Shown here piece after piece: positions 3,947-58,500 of a stretch of DNA of 64,000 nucleotides. Origin of the DNA: an uncultured Candidatus Saccharibacteria bacterium. GTDB taxonomy: Bacteria; Patescibacteriota; Minisyncoccia; Minisyncoccales; CAZKCU01. The stretch spans positions 197,321 through 261,320 of the forward strand of contig CAZKCU010000001.1 of NCBI GenBank assembly GCA_964551595.1. Direction: 5' to 3'. Below the pieces are notes generated by a model. That model was not told where the DNA came from. It ran no database searches and was given only the letters and a program-made list of their open reading frames with translations. The position numbers were made by a program, and so were the translations under genes. Within the stretch, counting starts at the first letter, position 1, and the number at the start of each line of letters is the position of its first letter.

Positions 3947-4437
3947 TTATTATAGGTATTGACCCGGGCACGGCCCATCTAGGGTATGGCATCATCAAAA
4001 AAACCAAAGGTAAGAAAAATAAACTCAAAGCCATTGATTATGGCTGCATTAAAACTAGCCCAGACTTTTCAGATGGGGACCGTTTAAAGAAAATTAACAA
4101 CGAACTTAATAAGTTAATTAAAAAATATAAACCAAAGATTTTGGCGATTGAGAGTCTTTATTTTTTTAAAAATTTAAAAACAGCACTTCCTGTCAGCCAG
4201 GCCACAGGAGTAATTTTACTTACTGCTGCTAAGAAAAAAATTCCGGTCGTTGAATTTACTCCTCTACAGGTTAAACTTGCAATTACCGGTTATGGAAGAG
4301 CGGAAAAGCAACAAGTCCAAAAAATGGTTAAAATTTTGCTTAATTTAAAAGAAATACCTCAATCCCCCGATGCTGCCGATGCCCTTGGCGTGGCTATTTG
4401 CTGTACAAATTTTCGCAAAAAAGTTCTTAAAGCTTGA
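3943..4437 (+). CDS. ruvC: crossover junction endodeoxyribonuclease RuvC
   Basis: MIIIGIDPGTAHLGYGII catalytic N-terminus; 164 aa. Confidence 0.85.
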   Translation: MIIIGIDPGTAHLGYGIIKKTKGKKNKLKAIDYGCIKTSPDFSDGDRLKKINNELNKLIKKYKPKILAIESLYFFKNLKTALPVSQATGVILLTAAKKKIPVVEFTPLQVKLAITGYGRAEKQQVQKMVKILLNLKEIPQSPDAADALGVAICCTNFRKKVLKA

Positions 4438-4462
4438 CAAGCCTTGTTCAGAAAACTATAAT
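4434..4462 (+). promoter_or_regulatory. sigma70-consensus promoter (TTGACA-17 nt-TATAAT)
   Basis: ttgaca at 4434-4439, 17-nt spacer, tataat at 4457-4462; lies in the ruvC 3' end/intergenic region upstream of the small repeat ORF. Confidence 0.5.
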
Positions 4463-4559
4463 CTTTGTATCCCTTAGAAAATGGCTAATAGAGAGATTGA
4501 AAAGGTCGAAAATAATTGAATAAAAATTAATAAAATTTAATAAAGAGAATTAATCAAAT

Positions 4560-4736
4560 ATGATTTACAAAGAAAAAATTTTAACTCCGGTTGTTAGCCA
4601 AGAACCAGGAACAGTTCCTGAAGGAACTCCTGCAGAAGGAACTCCTGCAGAGGAAACTCCTGCAGAGGAAACTCCTGCTGAAGAAACTCCTGCTGAAGAA
4701 ACTCCTGCAGAAGAAGAAAAGAAAGAGGAAGTTTAG
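4560..4736 (+). CDS. small acidic repeat protein (59 aa) containing six 15-nt tandem repeats encoding (E/G)(G/E)TPA
   Basis: ATG at 4560, TAG at 4734; peptide MIYKEKILTPVVSQEPGTVPEGTPAEGTPAEETPAEETPAEETPAEETPAEEEKKEEV. The track ORF 4591..4791 is the wrong frame of the same repeat. Confidence 0.4.
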   Translation: MIYKEKILTPVVSQEPGTVPEGTPAEGTPAEETPAEETPAEETPAEETPAEEEKKEEV

Positions 4737-18250: not shown

Positions 18251-19270
18251 ATGAGAGAAACAATTTTAAATTTTCCAAAACAATTTAAAGAAGGCATAGA
18301 AAGAGCAAAAGATATTAGGGTTGAGGGAAGGTTTGAAAATATTATAATTTGCGGAATGGGCGGTTCAGCTTTACCTGCCGACCTTTTAGTTATTTTTTTT
18401 AATGATTTGAGATTACCCCTCTATATTCATCGCAGCTACAATCTTCCTCCTCAAGCAACTAAAGAAAGTTTAATAGTTTGTATTTCCTTTTCCGGGAATA
18501 CCAAAGAGCCAATTTCAGCTTTAAAAGAAGCTCAAGAAAGAAAACTTAAAGTGATAGCCATTACTACTGGAGGAGAGCTTGCAAAATTGGCCCAAAAATA
18601 TAATACGCCCCTTGTCTCTCTGCCTCCTGTTAAAATTCAGCCCCGCTGGGCCATTGGCTATCTTTTTGGAGCTTTGGTAAAGGTTTTGTCTAATTCCGGA
18701 ATAATTGAGGATAGTTCTGGAGAGATCTTTAAAATAGCTGAAAATTTGAGACCCCTTGAATTAGAAGACCGGGGCAAAATTTTAGCTAAAAAATTAGCGG
18801 GCAAAATCCCTATTATTTATGCTTCAAACAAATTTAAGTCCTTAGCCCGGATTTGGAAAATAAAATTAAATGAAAATTCAAAAACAATGGCTTTTTGGAA
18901 CTATTTTCCTGAACTTATTCATAACGAGATTGTAGGATATAACTTAATCGCGGAGCGATTGCCCACTGTTCACACACAGCAGGGAGCGAAGCGACCGGTT
19001 TGCTGTCTCAAAAATTTTCAGGTGATTATGCTTCGAGATTCAGATGACCATCCAAAGGTTTTAAAAGCAATGGATTTAACGGATGTTTTGTTAAGGAAAA
19101 AAGGCGCTGGAGTTGATTTCGTTGAGATTAAGGGGAAAAGTATTTTAGAGAAAGTATTCAATAATTTAATTCTTGCTGATTGGGTAAGCTATTATTTGGC
19201 TGAAGAATATAAAATTGACCCGGCTCCGGTAGAAATTGTGGAAGAATTCAAGAAAAAATTAAAAGAGTAA
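18251..19270 (+). CDS. bifunctional phosphoglucose/phosphomannose isomerase (SIS domain, archaeal type)
   Basis: GMGGSALPADLL SIS motif; 339 aa. Confidence 0.7.
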   Translation: MRETILNFPKQFKEGIERAKDIRVEGRFENIIICGMGGSALPADLLVIFFNDLRLPLYIHRSYNLPPQATKESLIVCISFSGNTKEPISALKEAQERKLKVIAITTGGELAKLAQKYNTPLVSLPPVKIQPRWAIGYLFGALVKVLSNSGIIEDSSGEIFKIAENLRPLELEDRGKILAKKLAGKIPIIYASNKFKSLARIWKIKLNENSKTMAFWNYFPELIHNEIVGYNLIAERLPTVHTQQGAKRPVCCLKNFQVIMLRDSDDHPKVLKAMDLTDVLLRKKGAGVDFVEIKGKSILEKVFNNLILADWVSYYLAEEYKIDPAPVEIVEEFKKKLKE

Positions 19271-19272
19271 TT

Positions 19273-19506
19273 ATGGAGAAAAAATCAGCTATTACAAAAG
19301 AAATGACTATTGGTGAGGTAATTAAGAGATATCCAAAGACAGCTTTCGTTTTTATTGATTATGGGCTTCATTGCGTTGGCTGTCCGATGGCAAAACCTGA
19401 AACAATTGAAGAAGCGGTTGGGTTCCATCGAATTGACCTGAAAAAGTTTTTAGAAGATTTAAATAAAACAGCTCTGTCTCAGAGTAAAACAGGAAAAAAG
19501 CCTTGA
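19273..19506 (+). CDS. DUF1858-like redox/disulfide small protein
   Basis: 77 aa; GLHCVGCPMA motif characteristic of hybrid-cluster-associated DUF1858. Confidence 0.55.
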   Translation: MEKKSAITKEMTIGEVIKRYPKTAFVFIDYGLHCVGCPMAKPETIEEAVGFHRIDLKKFLEDLNKTALSQSKTGKKP

Positions 19507-19535
19507 TTTGTCAAAAAACCAAGGCTTTTTAAGAT
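19498..19535. terminator. bidirectional terminator hairpin (aagccttg-atttgtcaaaaaac-caaggctt + T run)
   Basis: 8-bp stem between convergent DUF1858 gene and RT gene. Confidence 0.55.
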
Positions 19536-20662
19536 ATTCTTTTTTCCAATTTCAGATAATCATCCAGAAGACCTCGCGGCAAGGTATCAATTCTGGCAAA
19601 CCCCATTTGTCCGCGAACCTTCTGCCAGGTTTTTTCATAATCCAGGCCATGGTCTAAAAGCCAGCCAAGATGATGAAGAGAAAGACGCAGTCGCCTTTTA
19701 AAGGTGCGCGTATTGTGAGCTTTTCCTTCAATTACATTCAATCCGAGCATTCTTAAACTGCTTCCCCTTATCATCCTTCTCTCTTTAATCTTGTGAGGCT
19801 CAAATCCATATTTCCTAATTGCTCTTAAAAGGGCAATTTTTACTTTTTGAGGAAATTTTTCTTTTTCTATTGAAAAGAAAAGATTGTCAGCATAACGGGT
19901 ATATTTCCCTTCGGAGTTCTCTACCAGAGATAAAAGCTTCTCATCCAATTTCTTACATATTAAATCAAAAAGTTTTGGGCTGGGCGGTGCTCCTTGAGGA
20001 AGATTTCCCTTAAAGGTGGTGAGTTCAGCTACAATTCTCGCTCCATACCAGGAGAAATAACCATACTCATAGCGGTACTTTTTCTTTTGCTCTGCGGTTT
20101 CATCAGGGCCATAAAGGGCAGGATTCATTTCTGCTTTAAACCGTACCCTTCTTCCTTCAATTAGATATTGAAAGACATCATCAAAATTTACGCTTGGAAA
20201 AGCATCTTCAAAATCAACGCAAAGAATGCTTTTTGCTCCCAAATGAGGATTTATCGCTTCATTAATGCTTCCGCCGGAAAAACCAAATACATTTTTAGCC
20301 GGATTTAAGAAGCTGAGAACATATTTATTAATTTTCCTCTGAATTTTCTTTAAGCGTTCATCGGGAACGCAAACTTTTCTTTTGCCGCCACTTTCTTTTG
20401 GCAGGTATACTACTTTATAAAGGCAATTGCGGTTGCTTCTTATCAATCTTAGAATCTGGATTAAATCATCAGGATGGATTTTTATCTCTTTTGCCAGCCA
20501 AAAGCAGGTAGGTATCTCTCTGGGATTTATCAAGCTTGTTTTTTTAGGCAAAATAGCGTTAAATCTCGCTGTTTCTTCTTCCATTATTGCCCTTTCTATT
20601 AATTCTTCTTTCGCCAATTCCTCCGGAGACTTTTCCGGGAGTATTTCTTCATAGTTTCTCAT
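19529..20662 (-). CDS. reverse transcriptase, retron/Abi/DRT-like (RT domains 1-7, QGxxxSP type; motif C is YADN)
   Basis: RT1 YLPKESGGKRKVCVP; RT2a FGFSGGSINEAINPH; motif A CVDFEDAFPSV; motif B' LPQGAPPSPKLF; motif C RYADNLFFS; RT6 KYGFEPHKIK; RT7 LRMLGLNV; AGGAG RBS 6 nt before ATG. Confidence 0.8.
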   Translation of the reverse strand: MRNYEEILPEKSPEELAKEELIERAIMEEETARFNAILPKKTSLINPREIPTCFWLAKEIKIHPDDLIQILRLIRSNRNCLYKVVYLPKESGGKRKVCVPDERLKKIQRKINKYVLSFLNPAKNVFGFSGGSINEAINPHLGAKSILCVDFEDAFPSVNFDDVFQYLIEGRRVRFKAEMNPALYGPDETAEQKKKYRYEYGYFSWYGARIVAELTTFKGNLPQGAPPSPKLFDLICKKLDEKLLSLVENSEGKYTRYADNLFFSIEKEKFPQKVKIALLRAIRKYGFEPHKIKERRMIRGSSLRMLGLNVIEGKAHNTRTFKRRLRLSLHHLGWLLDHGLDYEKTWQKVRGQMGFARIDTLPRGLLDDYLKLEKRIS

Positions 20663-20960
20663 TAACTGCTCCTTTCATTATTATTTTTAAAAAGAACTGG
20701 GGTTGCCTCTAACTTTAAAAGATATATCTTAAAAGACAACCCCTTGATATTATGGTGGTGTTCCCTCCCTCGCCTTTTGCTGTGAAAAAAGATGCGAAGC
20801 GATACAAAGCTAGTATTCAGAGCTGTCAGATTTCTGACGGCCTGTCTTTTTGAAAAATTTTCAAAGACACTGACGAACCCCACCTTTATTTTAAAATAAC
20901 AAAATAAATCGTTAGTGTCAAAAATGAATAACCTCGGTCCTTAATTGAACCGAGGTTCTT
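20663..20960 (-). ncRNA. structured non-coding leader/ncRNA candidate upstream of RT (retron msr-msd-like or DRT ncRNA-like)
   Basis: ~300 nt without ORF support; TTGACA-like -35 (fwd 20916-20921); several hairpins (ggggttg...caacccc; gtcag-attt-ctgac; gtctttttgaaaa/ttttcaaagac). Confidence 0.35.
20927..20957 (-). terminator. hairpin immediately after stop of ORF 20962..21303 (aacctcggt-N10-accgaggtt)
   Basis: perfect 9-bp stem 4 nt downstream of TAG; followed on the minus strand by attcattttt. Confidence 0.45.
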
Positions 20961-20961
20961 A

Positions 20962-21303
20962 CTAATTGACATACCCATATATAGCTGATACTTTTTCTCT
21001 TTCTTTAGTCATGACTATAATGGTAGTAATAAAATCGGATACCAGAACACGACTTGATTTCGGACGGTCGGGGAACTTGATCCCTAACCTGTAGCCAGCC
21101 TCAATGTCTTGGGATAGAGGTGTGTATCCTAATGCTTTTGGCAAAACACTGCCCAGTAAAACTCCTCGGCCCTCCTTTTTACCGTCGAAATATACTGTCC
21201 TTAATCCTTTCCTGTCGGGGGCTTCAATAACCCAGGTGTGCCCTTCTTCCGTAGATATCACCAATCCATCCTCAATATCTTTCGGCGCTTTATTTATTTC
21301 CAT
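20962..21303 (-). CDS. hypothetical protein (113 aa), immediately upstream of RT on the same strand; candidate RT-associated effector
   Basis: ORF with no recognisable motif; MEINKAPKDIEDGLVISTEEGHTWVIEAPDRKGLRTVYFDGKKEGRG... Confidence 0.4.
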   Translation of the reverse strand: MEINKAPKDIEDGLVISTEEGHTWVIEAPDRKGLRTVYFDGKKEGRGVLLGSVLPKALGYTPLSQDIEAGYRLGIKFPDRPKSSRVLVSDFITTIIVMTKEREKVSAIYGYVN

Positions 21304-21489
21304 CTTGGCCTCCTTTACCTTAATAAATATTAACCTTTTAAGAACTACATAACTATATCTTCAATGGTTATTATAATTTTATATTCTATCTAACAAAAAA
21401 GAAAATGTCAACAAAGATAATATTCTATCAATTTTTTTTAATTCTTTAAAAAATTGCCAATCAGGTATTTTTTGGTAGAATAAAATAAT

Positions 21490-21894
21490 ATGAGTTTTGT
21501 GATTAAGACCAAAGGGTTCAACGATATCGTTGACATAACTTTGCAGGTTTCTCAGACGGTTAAAAGCTCTAAGATAAAAGATGGAATTTGCGTAATATCT
21601 TCTCCTGGTTCAACTTGCGGGATAACTACTATTGAGTATGAGCCAGGTTTAATTGAAGATTTAAAAAGAGTTCTGGAAAGAATTGCGCCGATGTCAAAAG
21701 ATTACGAGCATTGCAAAAAATGGGGTGATTGTAACGGCTATGCTCATATTCGTTCGGCTTTGCTAAAGCCATTTTTAGCAGTGCCGATTGAAGAAGGAAG
21801 ATTAGCTTTGGGCAATTGGCAACAAATTGCGTTTTTGGACTTCGACAATAGACCAAGAGAAAGAAAAATAATCGTAAAAATAATAAAAAGTTAA
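21490..21894 (+). CDS. YjbQ/UPF0047 family protein (secondary thiamine-phosphate synthase-like)
   Basis: 134 aa; CVISSPGSTCGITTIEYEPG...GNWQQIAFLDFD pattern of YjbQ family. Confidence 0.7.
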   Translation: MSFVIKTKGFNDIVDITLQVSQTVKSSKIKDGICVISSPGSTCGITTIEYEPGLIEDLKRVLERIAPMSKDYEHCKKWGDCNGYAHIRSALLKPFLAVPIEEGRLALGNWQQIAFLDFDNRPRERKIIVKIIKS

Positions 21895-21900
21895 TCAAGA

Positions 21901-22527
21901 ATGAAAATCAGCATTAATAAAGTTATTAAAACTTTTATCCTTTCTGACTTTTTTCTTCAATCCGGGTGGGGGTTAATCGGTCCTATTTTTGCTGTGTTTA
22001 TAATAAGAAACATTCACGGCGGAAGTTTGGCAATAGTTGGATTTGTTGCGGCGACTTACTGGATTGTCAAATCAATTTTTCAACCTTTCATTGCCTATTT
22101 TTTTGACCTTAAGAAAGGAGAGAAAGATGATTTTAAATTTCTGATTGTCGGTATGTATATAGCTAACCTAATTCCTCTCGGTTACCTTCTTTCTTCTCAA
22201 ATTTGGCAGATTTTTTTATTAGAATTTATCAGGGGTCTGGCCATGGCCTGCGTTATTCCAACTTGGGCAGGAATTTTCACCAGGCATATAAACAAGGGTT
22301 GGGAAGCATTTTCCTGGAGCGTCGAGAGTACCGCTATTGGTTTTGCCTTTGGTCTTGCCGCTGCTTTCGGCGGGGTAATGGCCACAATTTTAGGATTTAA
22401 AACCGTTTTTGTCTTGGTTTCTGTTTTTGGTTTAATTGCTTCCTCAATTTTGTTATTAATCCGTAATCAAATTTTTCCGAAAGACCACTTTATTCCGCGG
22501 GTACCACCGGCCGAGAAACCATTTTAA
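21901..22527 (+). CDS. multi-pass membrane protein (MFS-half-like, hypothetical)
   Basis: 208 aa; ~6 hydrophobic helices. Confidence 0.35.
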   Translation: MKISINKVIKTFILSDFFLQSGWGLIGPIFAVFIIRNIHGGSLAIVGFVAATYWIVKSIFQPFIAYFFDLKKGEKDDFKFLIVGMYIANLIPLGYLLSSQIWQIFLLEFIRGLAMACVIPTWAGIFTRHINKGWEAFSWSVESTAIGFAFGLAAAFGGVMATILGFKTVFVLVSVFGLIASSILLLIRNQIFPKDHFIPRVPPAEKPF

Positions 22528-24265: not shown

Positions 24266-24511
24266 AACATCCCACATCGGAGATGGGTCGGGTCAGGTCG
24301 CGAGAGTTCTCCGCGAAGCGGAAACTCCCGACCGAGAACCTTTCGGTTCTCCCGTGTAGGAAAAGATTAAAAACAGAGGGTGGTCAAAGAGATAAATCTC
24401 TTTTTCACCTCGCTGCGGTTCGGTTTTTAAGGAGCGAGCCCTAAGCGAGGCGAAGCCGAGCGCTAGCACTTTGTGCCAGAGAGGGCGAGCGACTAACTTG
24501 GTATTACCACT

Positions 24512-28412: not shown

Positions 28413-28773
28413 TTGTGGAGATGGGGAGACGTGAACTCCCGTCTGAAAGTCCTTTTAAAATATTTCTACAGGTTTTTTCTGCTTTAGTTTTGGAATGCTG
28501 GATATAAAGCAGAAAAAAATTCCAGCATCATAGCCCCTATCTTTTGATAGAACCTTTGAGGCAAAAAGAACTATCTATCTCGATGATATAACACCTGATT
28601 TCACCTATCGAGAATCAGTGATCAGATGGCTCACGGGTTTATGCGTAAGCAGGAGCAAGCTTTGGGCTTGCAAATAAGTTGGCACTTATTATCTTACTAG
28701 AAGTTTTATGAGTTTCTAGTAAACTCAACCTGCATAGTTTAAAAGTTTCTTTCATCAATCCTTTTTCATCCCC
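28413..28773 (-). ncRNA. ssrA: tmRNA (ssrA) candidate, ~361 nt, adjacent to smpB
   Basis: 5' GGGGAUG pairs with 3' CAUCUCC including a G3-U70 wobble (tRNA-Ala identity); T-arm GGGAG-UUCACGU-CUCCC; discriminator A then genomic CAA; putative resume codon GCC at nt 91 and tag ANLFASPKLAPAYA ending at UAA nt 133-135; 5' end overlaps smpB stop. Confidence 0.55.
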
Positions 28774-58416: not shown

Positions 58417-58500
58417 TGCCGGAGGTGGGACTTGAACCCACAAGCCCTTGCGGACAGTAGATTTTGAATCTACCCTGTTTTCCAATTTCAGCACTCCGGC
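58417..58500 (-). tRNA. tRNA-Leu (anticodon CAA), class II with long variable arm; CCA not encoded
   Basis: minus-strand read GCCGGAG...GGTAGA-TTCAAAA-TCTAC...GTCCGCAAGGGCTTGT...GTGGGTTCAAGTCCCAC-CTCCGGC-A; 7-bp acceptor, T-loop GGTTCAAGTCC. Confidence 0.8.

Follow-up and report, generated by a model that had tools for sequence, protein, structure and literature searches.

The reverse transcriptase (RT) described here belongs to the retron lineage by sequence and fold, fits none of the classified retron types (I–XIII), and is encoded directly downstream of a conserved structured non-coding RNA (ncRNA) that has its own promoter. We consider it probable (roughly 60%) that RT and ncRNA together make up an orphan, i.e. 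effector-less, retron-like retroelement of two parts, which would represent an unclassified clade centred on the Patescibacteria. The two-part system is compact, at ~1.45 kb.

Results

Organisation of the locus

The window is the whole 64-kb stretch of DNA that was analysed, and positions are counted from its first letter. All features described in an earlier note on this DNA were present where it had placed them, and its picture of a module amid unrelated housekeeping genes agreed with Pfam, which identified the flanking genes as DUF1858, PGI, UPF0047/YjbQ and PolX. The RT stop codon is separated from the convergent DUF1858 gene by 22 nt, with one hairpin common to both genes. The features of the locus are as follows.

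19529–20662, minus strand: RT gene, 377 aa, retron lineage (sequence, profile and fold matches)
20669–20888, minus strand: conserved structured ncRNA, ~220 nt (full-length match of covariance model R1)
20893–20921, minus strand: predicted ncRNA–RT promoter, sigma-70-like, TTGACA-17-TATTTT, with a TG-extended −10
20875–20884, minus strand: a1, 5′ arm of the closing helix P1, GGUGGGGUUC (covariation and folds)
20874, minus strand: conserved G immediately 3′ of a1, candidate branching/priming G (alignment of 38 RNAs)
20844–20868, minus strand: HP1, hairpin of variable length (covariation)
20821–20842, minus strand: HP2, near-invariant hairpin and clade signature, here GGCCGUCAGAAAUCUGACAGCU, consensus CUGUCAGAAUUCUGACGG
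20764–20820, minus strand: fast-evolving stretch between HP2 and a2, in an msd-like position (locus comparison)
20754–20763, minus strand: a2, 3′ arm of the closing helix P1, GAACACCACC (covariation and folds)
20689–20743, minus strand: terminator- or attenuator-like GC-rich hairpin and the tract that follows it (fold and covariation)
20699–20743, minus strand: the GC-rich hairpin itself, GGGGUUGUC...GGCAACCCC, then UUCUUUUU at 20689–20696
20669–20675, minus strand: Shine-Dalgarno sequence AAAGGAG of the RT gene (sequence)
19495–19530, no strand assigned: predicted terminator hairpin common to the RT gene and the convergent DUF1858 gene
20962–21303, minus strand: 113-aa orphan ORF with its own promoter and terminator, probably adjacent cargo of a variable gap
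21411–21383, minus strand: predicted promoter-like site of the 113-aa ORF, TTGACA-17-TAGAAT
20957–20930, minus strand: predicted terminator hairpin of the 113-aa ORF

The RT belongs to the retron lineage and fits no classified type

The 377-aa protein matched Pfam RVT_1 (E = 6.9e-17), and retron RT models took all of the top 25 places in PADLOC (E = 4e-45 to 1e-30). Within NCBIfam it matched retron_St85_RT with E = 2.7e-44 (151.6 bits, under that family's cut-off of 235), with group II (8e-08) and Drt2 (1e-05) far behind. A phmmer search of PDB sequences placed the Ec86 RT first (1.5e-20), followed by Kva2, Ec67, Ec83, Ec78 and Eco8, with group II at only 1e-04. When the AlphaFold2 model of the RT (pLDDT 88) was compared with PDB structures using Foldseek, ranks 1–18 were all retron RTs, and the C-terminal region was of retron type, aligning to the end of the St85-family RT. 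The earlier note's view of a genuine RT was thus borne out, with a retron lineage supported by profile, PDB sequence and fold matches; membership of the DRT/UG group, which it had also suggested, was not upheld, as Drt2 (NF041746) gave 24.5 bits where the cut-off is 390.

Assignment to a type was assessed with the PADLOC 2023 type models, on which the RT scored 152, 150, 142, 141 and 140 bits for II-A, III-A, XII, XI and XIII, and only 118 bits for the Ec107-like model. P0011 reached 161 bits at most on these type models, and control YADD RTs scored 291–542 bits, each on one model.

Group II introns and diversity-generating retroelements (DGRs) are the two commonest bacterial RT classes, and a remnant of the former or a member of the latter was weighed as the source of this RT. 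[quoted passage not shown] The group II profile TIGR04416 gave 31.8 bits against a cut-off of 300, an Rfam search of positions 19000–22000 at E = 10 returned no intron RNA family, and 22 nt separate the RT stop from the neighbouring gene. As for a DGR, the variable region of the ncRNA had no second copy within the 64-kb window (the longest chance match was 14 nt), there was no Avd-like gene or target gene nearby, and DGR RT structures ranked 31st or lower in the fold search. Both classes had been dismissed in the earlier note, and we likewise regard them as having a negligible chance of being correct.

A structured ncRNA is conserved upstream of the RT gene

The leader (20650–20965) folded with −93 kcal/mol (z = −6.9 vs shuffles) and contained TTGACA-17-TATTTT at 20921–20893, in keeping with the structured leader and TTGACA −35 element reported earlier. 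This promoter was unchanged in the six closest loci, and transcription is predicted to start 1–3 nt before a1. The leader had been described as free of any plausible ORF; a 73-aa ORF starting with GTG (20662–20883) does overlap it, but relatives carry 1–2-nt indels and paired compensatory changes there; this ORF is not conserved, and the description stands. Rfam searched over positions 19000–22000 at E up to 10 turned up neither a retron msr nor a group II family, and nothing else of relevance.

A covariance model, R1, was built from 6 close loci and gave full-length matches at about 45 loci, directly upstream of an RT gene and on the same strand, where the RTs were as little as ~30% identical. 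Conservation of the structure was evident from the proportion of paired cells (93.7% vs 72% in shuffles), the number of double-change cells (305 vs 78 in shuffles) and the covariation score (0.439 vs ≤0.106 for slid controls). The placing of an ncRNA directly upstream of the RT in the earlier note therefore stands. The covariance analysis that it had proposed found both a closing helix formed by a1 and a2 and a conserved G after a1: P1 comprised 9 pairs, all with compensatory changes and 89–96% paired, and single-sequence folds closed the ends of 35 of 38 RNAs, compared with 3–5 of 38 in shifted windows. The G right after a1 was present in 35 of the 38 aligned RNAs, and a conserved G just 5′ of a2, facing it, in 34.

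Inside P1, HP1 ranged from 3 to 54 nt across the clade, and all its pairs covaried. The HP2 motif was found by regex search in 57 of 70 YADN loci vs 1 of 34 YADD retron loci, and since it is near-invariant it offers an easy sequence tag with which more members can be found. The stretch between HP2 and a2 measured 42–61 nt across the clade and held three conserved islands (GA, U..A and CGCnnCUUU). Among close loci, identity was 84–93% in the 5′ half of the ncRNA, 77–83% in the RT coding sequence and 16–89% in the variable stretch. Canonical msd regions have long stems of 10–50 bp (PMC7736814); the 42–61-nt stretch showed no excess of msd-type hairpins over shuffles (7.6 vs 7.1 pairs; −9.4 vs −8.7 kcal/mol). 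Beyond a2, all 11 stem pairs of the GC-rich hairpin covaried across the clade, and the U tract was able to pair with the Shine-Dalgarno region (helices 8–9, 81–93% paired).

An RT acting with one ncRNA could also be a two-part defence system like DRT2 or DRT9, in which repeated copying of the ncRNA would yield a toxic or signalling DNA, either through rolling-circle copying that assembles a repetitive gene or through copying a short U-rich template, the CGCnnCUUU island, over and over. DRT2 and DRT9 likewise consist only of RT and ncRNA, P1 joins the ends of the template region, and the CUUU island is conserved inside an otherwise variable stretch. However, the RT is of the retron and not the UG/Abi lineage, and the DRT2 and DRT9 structures ranked below all retron RTs and below group II-type RTs (GsI-IIC, G2L4). 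The segment inside P1 was not a multiple of 3 in length (mod-3 classes 8/17/13), and concatemers contained stops in all frames in most members, so that no endless ORF is possible. We therefore judge a system of this kind to be improbable.

A clade-wide change in motif C

Motif C of the RT reads YADN, with N260 in place of the second catalytic Asp. The earlier note had read it as YxD(D); the change to YADN in fact defines a whole clade, and N260 was shared by at least 90% of the 35 homologues in the alignment. Its FLG-like thumb likewise had to be corrected, to MLGLN, which recurs across the clade as xLGLN. Neighbour-joining of 211 RT domains placed 139 YADN sequences and 1 YVDN sequence in one clade with no YADD member inside; YADN was read in the window RT and in 139 of 139 clade members, compared with YADD in the St85 family and all other sampled retron RTs. 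YADN together with xLGLN occurred in about 70 of the best 75 representatives at 50% identity. The clade comprised at least ~70 clusters at 50% identity, almost entirely from Patescibacteria, and on this tree the YADN RTs appear to be a monophyletic, Patescibacteria-centred and previously unclassified group. Pfam found no fused domains in its longer members, and searches of phage sequences and IMG/VR returned no clade member, only ordinary retron RTs at ≤32% identity. The same searches also gave one unrelated YADN RT (L180).

In retrons, region X carries NAxxH between RT2 and RT3, with the H most conserved, and region Y carries VTG in RT7, with the G most conserved (PMC7736814). Here region X reads AINPH (NATPH in Ec86), retaining the P and H, and AIxPH across the clade, with H140 in at least 90% of members. 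In region Y, VTG is replaced by M-L-G ((M/L)LG in the clade), of which only G307, which is invariant, is kept. There is also an insertion of ~30 aa between motifs A and B relative to the Ec86 RT. D150 of motif A, D259 of motif C, the QGxxxSP box and the steric-gate F155 were invariant or nearly so.

To our knowledge, every characterised retron has a canonical YADD RT, and a literature search on YADN RTs found nothing relevant. In retroviral RTs the loss of the second Asp abolishes activity, while the Ty1 RT with the same change (D211N) keeps polymerase activity in vitro, with kpol lowered 223-fold and a preference for Mn2+ (PMC2148107). The clade-wide YADN motif suggests a slow or Mn2+-preferring polymerase rather than a dead one, as the invariance of the other polymerase residues across RTs that are ~30% identical is hard to explain without catalysis.

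The opposite reading is that the RT no longer makes DNA and serves as an RNA-binding protein with a cis-regulatory leader or partner RNA; it might, for example, bind HP2 and so regulate its own synthesis, through termination downstream or through how accessible its ribosome-binding site is, or it might act in a ribonucleoprotein with a non-polymerase function. Such a role would fit the replacement of YADD by YADN in every member, the terminator-like hairpin that is conserved, together with a U tract, in the interval from the RNA to the RT start, the capacity of this U tract to pair with the Shine-Dalgarno region, the lack of a significant msd-type hairpin and the lack of an effector. It is harder to reconcile with the invariant residues listed above and with polymerisation by Ty1 D211N, and the pairing of a1 with a2, which has a conserved G at its base, matches the priming geometry of retrons, something that a simple leader would not need. 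We regard loss of DNA synthesis as unlikely, while giving it real weight.

The module occupies a variable gap and has no conserved effector

The RT module lies in the gap between the DUF1858 and YjbQ genes in the window and in L026, L104, L105, L107, L108 and L113. In a sibling Nealsonbacteria genome (L109), the two genes are 91 nt apart with nothing between them, which agrees with the inserted accessory module proposed in the earlier note; no direct repeats were seen by eye at the edges of the indel. In L112 the same gap contains a toxin–antitoxin pair (ParE and a Phd-like ORF), and cargo of this kind in a sibling favours a conflict or defence role for the RT module, with a partner that is unlinked or does not exist.

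The candidate for a linked partner was the 113-aa ORF, and a classical three-part retron would result if this protein were an effector restrained by an RT–msDNA complex. It is encoded directly upstream on the same strand, is an orphan, evolves fast (36–39% identity where the RT is 77–78% identical), has a strong ribosome-binding site as well as a promoter and the terminator hairpin already noted at 20957–20930, and has homologues at the same position in L024, L025 and L105. Against this, the ORF is absent from L026, L107 and L108, in which RT and ncRNA are intact, is replaced in L104 by unrelated ORFs of 140 and 65 aa, and has no counterpart in ~40 other clade loci. It forms a separate transcription unit, had only 7 homologues in a search of 5.8 billion clusters, all in close relatives, showed no domain match in Pfam, PADLOC or NCBIfam, and gave an unusable AlphaFold2 model (pLDDT 45). 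The effector-like ORF, ncRNA and RT layout of the earlier note thus did not survive comparison with close relatives. From its distribution, the 113-aa ORF is most likely a separate cargo of the variable gap and not a conserved partner of the RT, and we consider a three-part retron very unlikely.

No conserved neighbour of the RT module was found in ~43 loci. Recurrent neighbours were cysS (17 loci), dnaX, efp and membrane proteins, which reflect housekeeping synteny and not an effector. A PADLOC scan of the 59 other ORFs of the window for an unlinked effector gave only single matches, to ShosA, QatD, PsyrA, DpdF, PbeA and Cas3, which were read, from a Pfam scan of the same ORFs, as housekeeping look-alikes (DprA, TatD and helicases).

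Discussion

The locus shares with retrons such as Retron-Eco1 (Ec86) its closest sequence and fold similarity (to the solved retron RTs), an ncRNA that immediately precedes the RT gene and is read from the same strand, closure of this RNA by the terminal inverted repeats a1 and a2 with a conserved G after a1, an ncRNA with a conserved 5′ half and a variable 3′ half, and a retron-type C-terminal region in the RT. It differs in its motifs (YADN, (M/L)LG and AIxPH, whereas retrons have YADD, VTG and NAxxH), in the insertion between motifs A and B, and in having no long msd stem and no effector. Its PADLOC scores peak at 152 bits and are evenly spread, whereas ordinary retron RTs score 290–540 bits on their own type. 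The conserved terminator-like hairpin after a2 is a further difference; we know of no such feature between a2 and the RT gene in described retrons.

The RT of an orphan retron would be expected to be canonical in sequence and to fall in a classified clade. About 75% of retrons have an associated gene or a fused domain, and roughly 25% are orphans (PMC7736814, PMC8632793). Orphans such as the Retron-Eco5 (Ec107) branch resemble the present system in consisting of RT and ncRNA only, with no linked effector, and Retron-Eco5 is likewise not associated with a prophage; they differ in their hosts and in their ncRNA, the one described here having no matching Rfam family.

Three other groups of RTs invite comparison. 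DRT2 (UG2) and DRT9 (UG28) also combine one RT with one upstream structured ncRNA and no separate effector; however, theirs are UG/Abi-lineage RTs that carry an alpha-repeat domain at the C terminus, every retron RT outranks their structures in the fold search, and the 'endless ORF' test was negative here. UG38 is a small uncharacterised group of UG/Abi class 2 from Parcubacteria, Nealsonbacteria and Atribacteria (PMC9226505). It has similar hosts, its RT stands alone and has no additional domain that is known, and it comes from metagenomes only; by its published description it is placed in UG/Abi, whereas the present RT scored with the retrons in all profile and fold tests. G2L4 RTs, which are group II intron-like, are likewise free-standing chromosomal RTs amid housekeeping genes, but in the fold search every retron RT came ahead of both the G2L4 and the group II structures, and we know of no dedicated upstream ncRNA for G2L4.

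Under the preferred reading of an orphan retron-like element, a single promoter would drive both the ~220-nt ncRNA and the RT gene. By analogy with retrons, the RT would bind the conserved 5′ hairpins of the ncRNA; the 2′-OH of the G after a1, given its position and conservation, could serve as primer; and the template would be a portion of the variable stretch, no longer than ~55 nt, from which the RT may make a short branched cDNA. After a2, the GC-rich hairpin and U tract would act as a terminator or attenuator, again as judged from retron biology, so that ncRNA would be made in large excess over RT mRNA.

A bolder proposal, which is possible although on the whole we doubt it, is that the YADN clade is a retron-derived yet functionally distinct class of Patescibacteria retroelement, a self-sufficient RT–RNA particle with a different product or chemistry. 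If so, the cDNA could be very short or Mn2+-dependent, the CGCnnCUUU island could be copied reiteratively, or the particle could work in an RNA-guided manner with no bulk synthesis of DNA; it would then serve some purpose other than the toxin-guard defence of known retrons.

Retrons are studied as anti-phage systems and as genome-editing tools. The toxin-guard logic of the studied retrons cannot be read from this locus, since it has no effector. The earlier note had called such systems rarely reported in reduced, Patescibacteria-type genomes, and our literature search on retrons in CPR lineages found nothing relevant and no paper tying retrons to lineages of Patescibacteria. An orphan retron-like element here would be the first retron-type element described for reduced Patescibacteria genomes, in which RTs have been thought to be almost all DGRs (PMC8632793). 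With all polymerase motifs kept except the second catalytic Asp, this large natural clade would also provide a natural experiment on the role of the third carboxylate in RTs.

A retron-lineage reverse transcriptase outside the known types

Two separate transcription units lie on the minus strand at 19495-21411. One, distal, carries a 113-aa ORF with a strong ribosome-binding site; the other, proximal, runs from a second promoter through ~220 nt without a conserved ORF to a reverse transcriptase (RT) gene, which ends 22 nt from a convergent DUF1858 gene, with a hairpin common to both. PGI and DUF1858 flank the locus on one side; on the other side lie UPF0047/YjbQ, a protein of the MFS family and PolX. 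Elsewhere the 64-kb window carries ordinary housekeeping genes (aminoacyl-tRNA synthetases, DnaA, topoisomerase I, tmRNA with SmpB).

Features of the two transcription units
21411-21383, minus strand: near-consensus promoter of the 113-aa ORF, TTGACA-17-TAGAAT
20962-21303, minus strand: 113-aa ORF (distal unit)
20957-20930, minus strand: terminator hairpin of the 113-aa ORF
20921-20893, minus strand: second promoter (proximal unit), TTGACA-17-TATTTT with TG
20662-19529, minus strand: RT gene, 377 aa

The RT is of the retron lineage and fits no known type. It matched Pfam RVT_1 (6.9e-17), its best 25 PADLOC matches were retron RT models throughout (3.9e-45 to 1.4e-30), and NCBIfam returned retron_St85_RT (2.7e-44), group II RT/maturase (8e-08) and Drt2 (1.3e-05), none reaching its curated cut-off. 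The solved structures nearest by sequence were retron RTs (Ec86, 1.5e-20; Kva2, Ec67, Ec83, Ec78 and Eco8), the first non-retron being a group II RT (1e-04). With a confident AlphaFold2 model (pLDDT 88), the 18 best Foldseek matches in the PDB were retron RTs, followed by group II, G2L4, DRT2, DRT9 and DGR RTs. Scores were flat over retron types (152 to 105 bits), whereas ordinary retron RTs from the same searches reached 291-542 bits on one type-specific model, which places the RT outside every type represented in PADLOC 2023. A group II intron was rejected on profile scores and because no intron RNA was found, and a DGR because the template-like stretch had no second copy in the 64-kb window. 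A small group of UG/Abi RTs, UG38, has been reported from Parcubacteria and Nealsonbacteria and is uncharacterised (PMC9226505); all tests here put the window RT with retrons, not with UG/Abi RTs.

The YADN clade and its active site

A homologue search with the RT gave 196 proteins, mostly unnamed metagenomic sequences, the named ones being from Patescibacteria MAGs. When 35 homologues were aligned, motif C was R-Y-A-D-N, with N260 kept in at least 90%, as against RYADD in the St85-family retron RT of that alignment. In place of the retron 'VTG' triplet stands (M/L/I)-L-G, and in place of 'NAxxH' A-I-x-P-H, so that only G and H, the most conserved residues of these signatures (Mestre et al., PMC7736814), are kept. 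At or above about 200 bits, a profile search of 1.84 billion representatives yielded ~75 clusters (50% identity), ~70 of which had both YADN and xLGLN; matches below ~195 bits were ordinary YADD/VTG retron RTs. In a neighbour-joining tree of 211 RT domains, one clade held all 139 YADN sequences, one YVDN and no YADD.

The other polymerase residues (D150 of motif A, D259 and the QGxxxSP box) were invariant or nearly so, as was the Phe that forms the steric gate for dNTPs (DFEDAF). A Ty1 RT in which the second Asp is likewise changed to Asn still polymerises in vitro, 223-fold slower and with a preference for Mn2+ (PMC2148107). By this precedent and the kept residues, the enzyme is probably active but kinetically unusual; a non-polymerase, autoregulatory role for the RT and its RNA appears unlikely. 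Any mechanism beyond putative RNA binding and retron-type geometry is an inference.

Two side observations concern other RTs. An unrelated retron-like RT (29% identical) on a GC-rich, 106-kb IMG/VR contig (L180:3923-4954) also has RYADN, suggesting that the Asp-to-Asn change arose there independently; no covariance-model match to the HP2-containing RNA described below was found at that locus. Three long proteins among the best-scoring YADD matches, P0268 (1381 aa), P0262 (719 aa) and P0283 (584 aa), have a C-terminal RT domain and RT_XIII as best PADLOC match; P0268 has a protein kinase domain N-terminal to it, and no extra Pfam domain was found in P0262 or P0283.

A conserved, retron-like RNA upstream of the RT

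The upstream RNA is a genuine, conserved feature whose outline resembles that of a retron RNA. Across six closely related loci, whose RTs are 70-78% identical, identity was 84-93% in the promoter and in the leader's 5' half, compared with 77-83% for the RT coding sequence, and it ranged from 16% to 89% in the stretch before the 3' arm. RNAalifold on these loci gave a helix that closes the two ends, a pair of hairpins, a variable stretch with no structure, and a GC-rich hairpin with U's after it. The covariance model made from the six loci matched at full length (E 1e-14 to 1e-3) in about 45 more, immediately upstream of the RT and on its strand, with RTs down to ~30% identical. In a 41-row alignment, fitted to the model, 93.7% of cells were paired (72% in shuffles), 305 were changed on both sides (78 in shuffles), and the covariation score was 0.439 (at most 0.106 with partners slid 1-3 columns). 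As an independent check each RNA was folded alone: 5 or more pairs joined the two ends in 35 of 38 RNAs, compared with 3-5 of 38 when control windows shifted 12 or 20 nt were used. The earlier note's core reading, a stand-alone, retron-like RT with a structured RNA, holds.

Features of the upstream RNA
20884-20875, minus strand: a1, 5' arm of closing helix P1
20874, minus strand: conserved G (35/38 RNAs), opposite a G kept in 34/38
20868-20844, minus strand: hairpin HP1, length range 3 to 54 nt
20842-20821, minus strand: hairpin HP2
20820-20764, minus strand: variable stretch, 42-61 nt over the clade
20763-20754, minus strand: a2, 3' arm of P1
20743-20699, minus strand: GC-rich hairpin, 11/11 stem pairs covarying
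20696-20689, minus strand: U tract, UUCUUUUU
20675-20669, minus strand: Shine-Dalgarno of the RT

The HP2 sequence, CUGUCAGAAUUCUGACGG, is nearly invariant and its five core pairs show zero compensatory change, a pattern that points to base-specific recognition. Of 70 YADN loci, 57 matched an HP2 regular expression, in every case a short way upstream of the RT; among 34 ordinary retron loci there was one match. Transcription is predicted to start 1-3 nt before a1, which would put a1 at the extreme 5' end of the transcript, as in a retron msr. Conservation within the variable stretch is confined to islands: GA, U..A and, about 30 nt to the 5' side of a2, CGCnnCUUU. The U tract (20689-20696) can pair with the Shine-Dalgarno (20669-20675; model helices 8-9, 81-93% paired over the clade), which may reflect translational coupling or mere U/A-purine complementarity.

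The RNA also departs from known retrons. Retron msd regions have stems of 10-50 bp (PMC7736814), whereas the msd-position stretch showed no hairpin excess over shuffles (7.6 vs 7.1 pairs). Between a2 and the RT start there is also a conserved hairpin that resembles a terminator. Rfam gave no relevant family match in 19000-22000 at E up to 10. DRT2-like gene synthesis was rejected because the P1-enclosed unit lengths are not multiples of three (mod-3 classes 8/17/13) and concatemers have stops in all frames in most members.

Elsewhere in the window, a tmRNA gene (28413-28773, minus strand, 113 bits; SmpB-family gene at a separate site) and one tRNA (58417-58500, minus strand) were the sole Rfam gathering-level matches. 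The GC-rich 246 nt between PolX and a NUDIX gene (24266-24511; -96 kcal/mol, z = -3.9) matched no Rfam family (E up to 0.5) and may encode a structured RNA that lacks annotation.

No effector accompanies the RT

The 113-aa ORF, previously taken as an effector-like part of the module, is not part of it. Its homologues number only seven, all from close relatives; in one relative (L104) unrelated ORFs of 140 and 65 aa stand in its place, and it is absent from three others (L026, L107, L108), where YjbQ lies ~320 nt from the RT. It is 36-39% identical where the RT is 77-78% identical, matched no domain in Pfam, PADLOC or NCBIfam, and gave an unusable AlphaFold2 model. Over ~43 loci the genes next to the RT were a mixed housekeeping set (dnaX, cysS, efp, GtrA-like membrane proteins), longer clade members had no extra Pfam domain, and a PADLOC scan of 59 other window ORFs returned no convincing effector.

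Cysteinyl-tRNA synthetase, identified by eye from sequence motifs, adjoins the RT in 17 clade loci (e.g. L030:4944-6314, L032:1292-2677, L009:6094-7515, L012:1620-3092, L058:2585-4201). In some of these it lies 62 nt downstream in the same direction, in others it is convergent, and the association may be no more than synteny.

Genomic insertion and distribution

The order PolX-MFS-YjbQ-[module]-DUF1858-PGI-HD-GreA-RtcA is kept in relatives. In the complete Ca. Nealsonbacteria genome CP179888.1 (L109; PGI 78% identical) the DUF1858-YjbQ gap is empty (91 nt), and in L112 (PGI 80% identical) the same gap (4247-4716, corresponding to window 19507-21489) has, instead of the RT module, a toxin of the ParE family (30.4 bits, cut-off 23) with a 70-aa ORF resembling Phd/YefM. 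The gap thus behaves as a small hotspot for cargo, with the RT module as one alternative content, which supports the proposed accessory insertion among housekeeping genes.

The distribution of the clade is wide but patchy. It was essentially absent from phage records and 2.9 million viral contigs, and only 23 species-representative genomes both matched the peptide patterns of the clade and passed confirmation; almost all of them carry the label of a Patescibacteria lineage (Paceibacterota, Saccharibacteria, Moranbacteria, Doudnabacteria, WWE3, Nealsonbacteria, Falkowbacteria). Overall, the stand-alone retron-like RT with a structured RNA, inserted among Patescibacteria housekeeping genes, stands without the small ORF, and is best filed in a clade of RT-ncRNA pairs that derives from retrons, lacks an effector and has YADN, xLGLN and the HP2 hairpin as its defining features.
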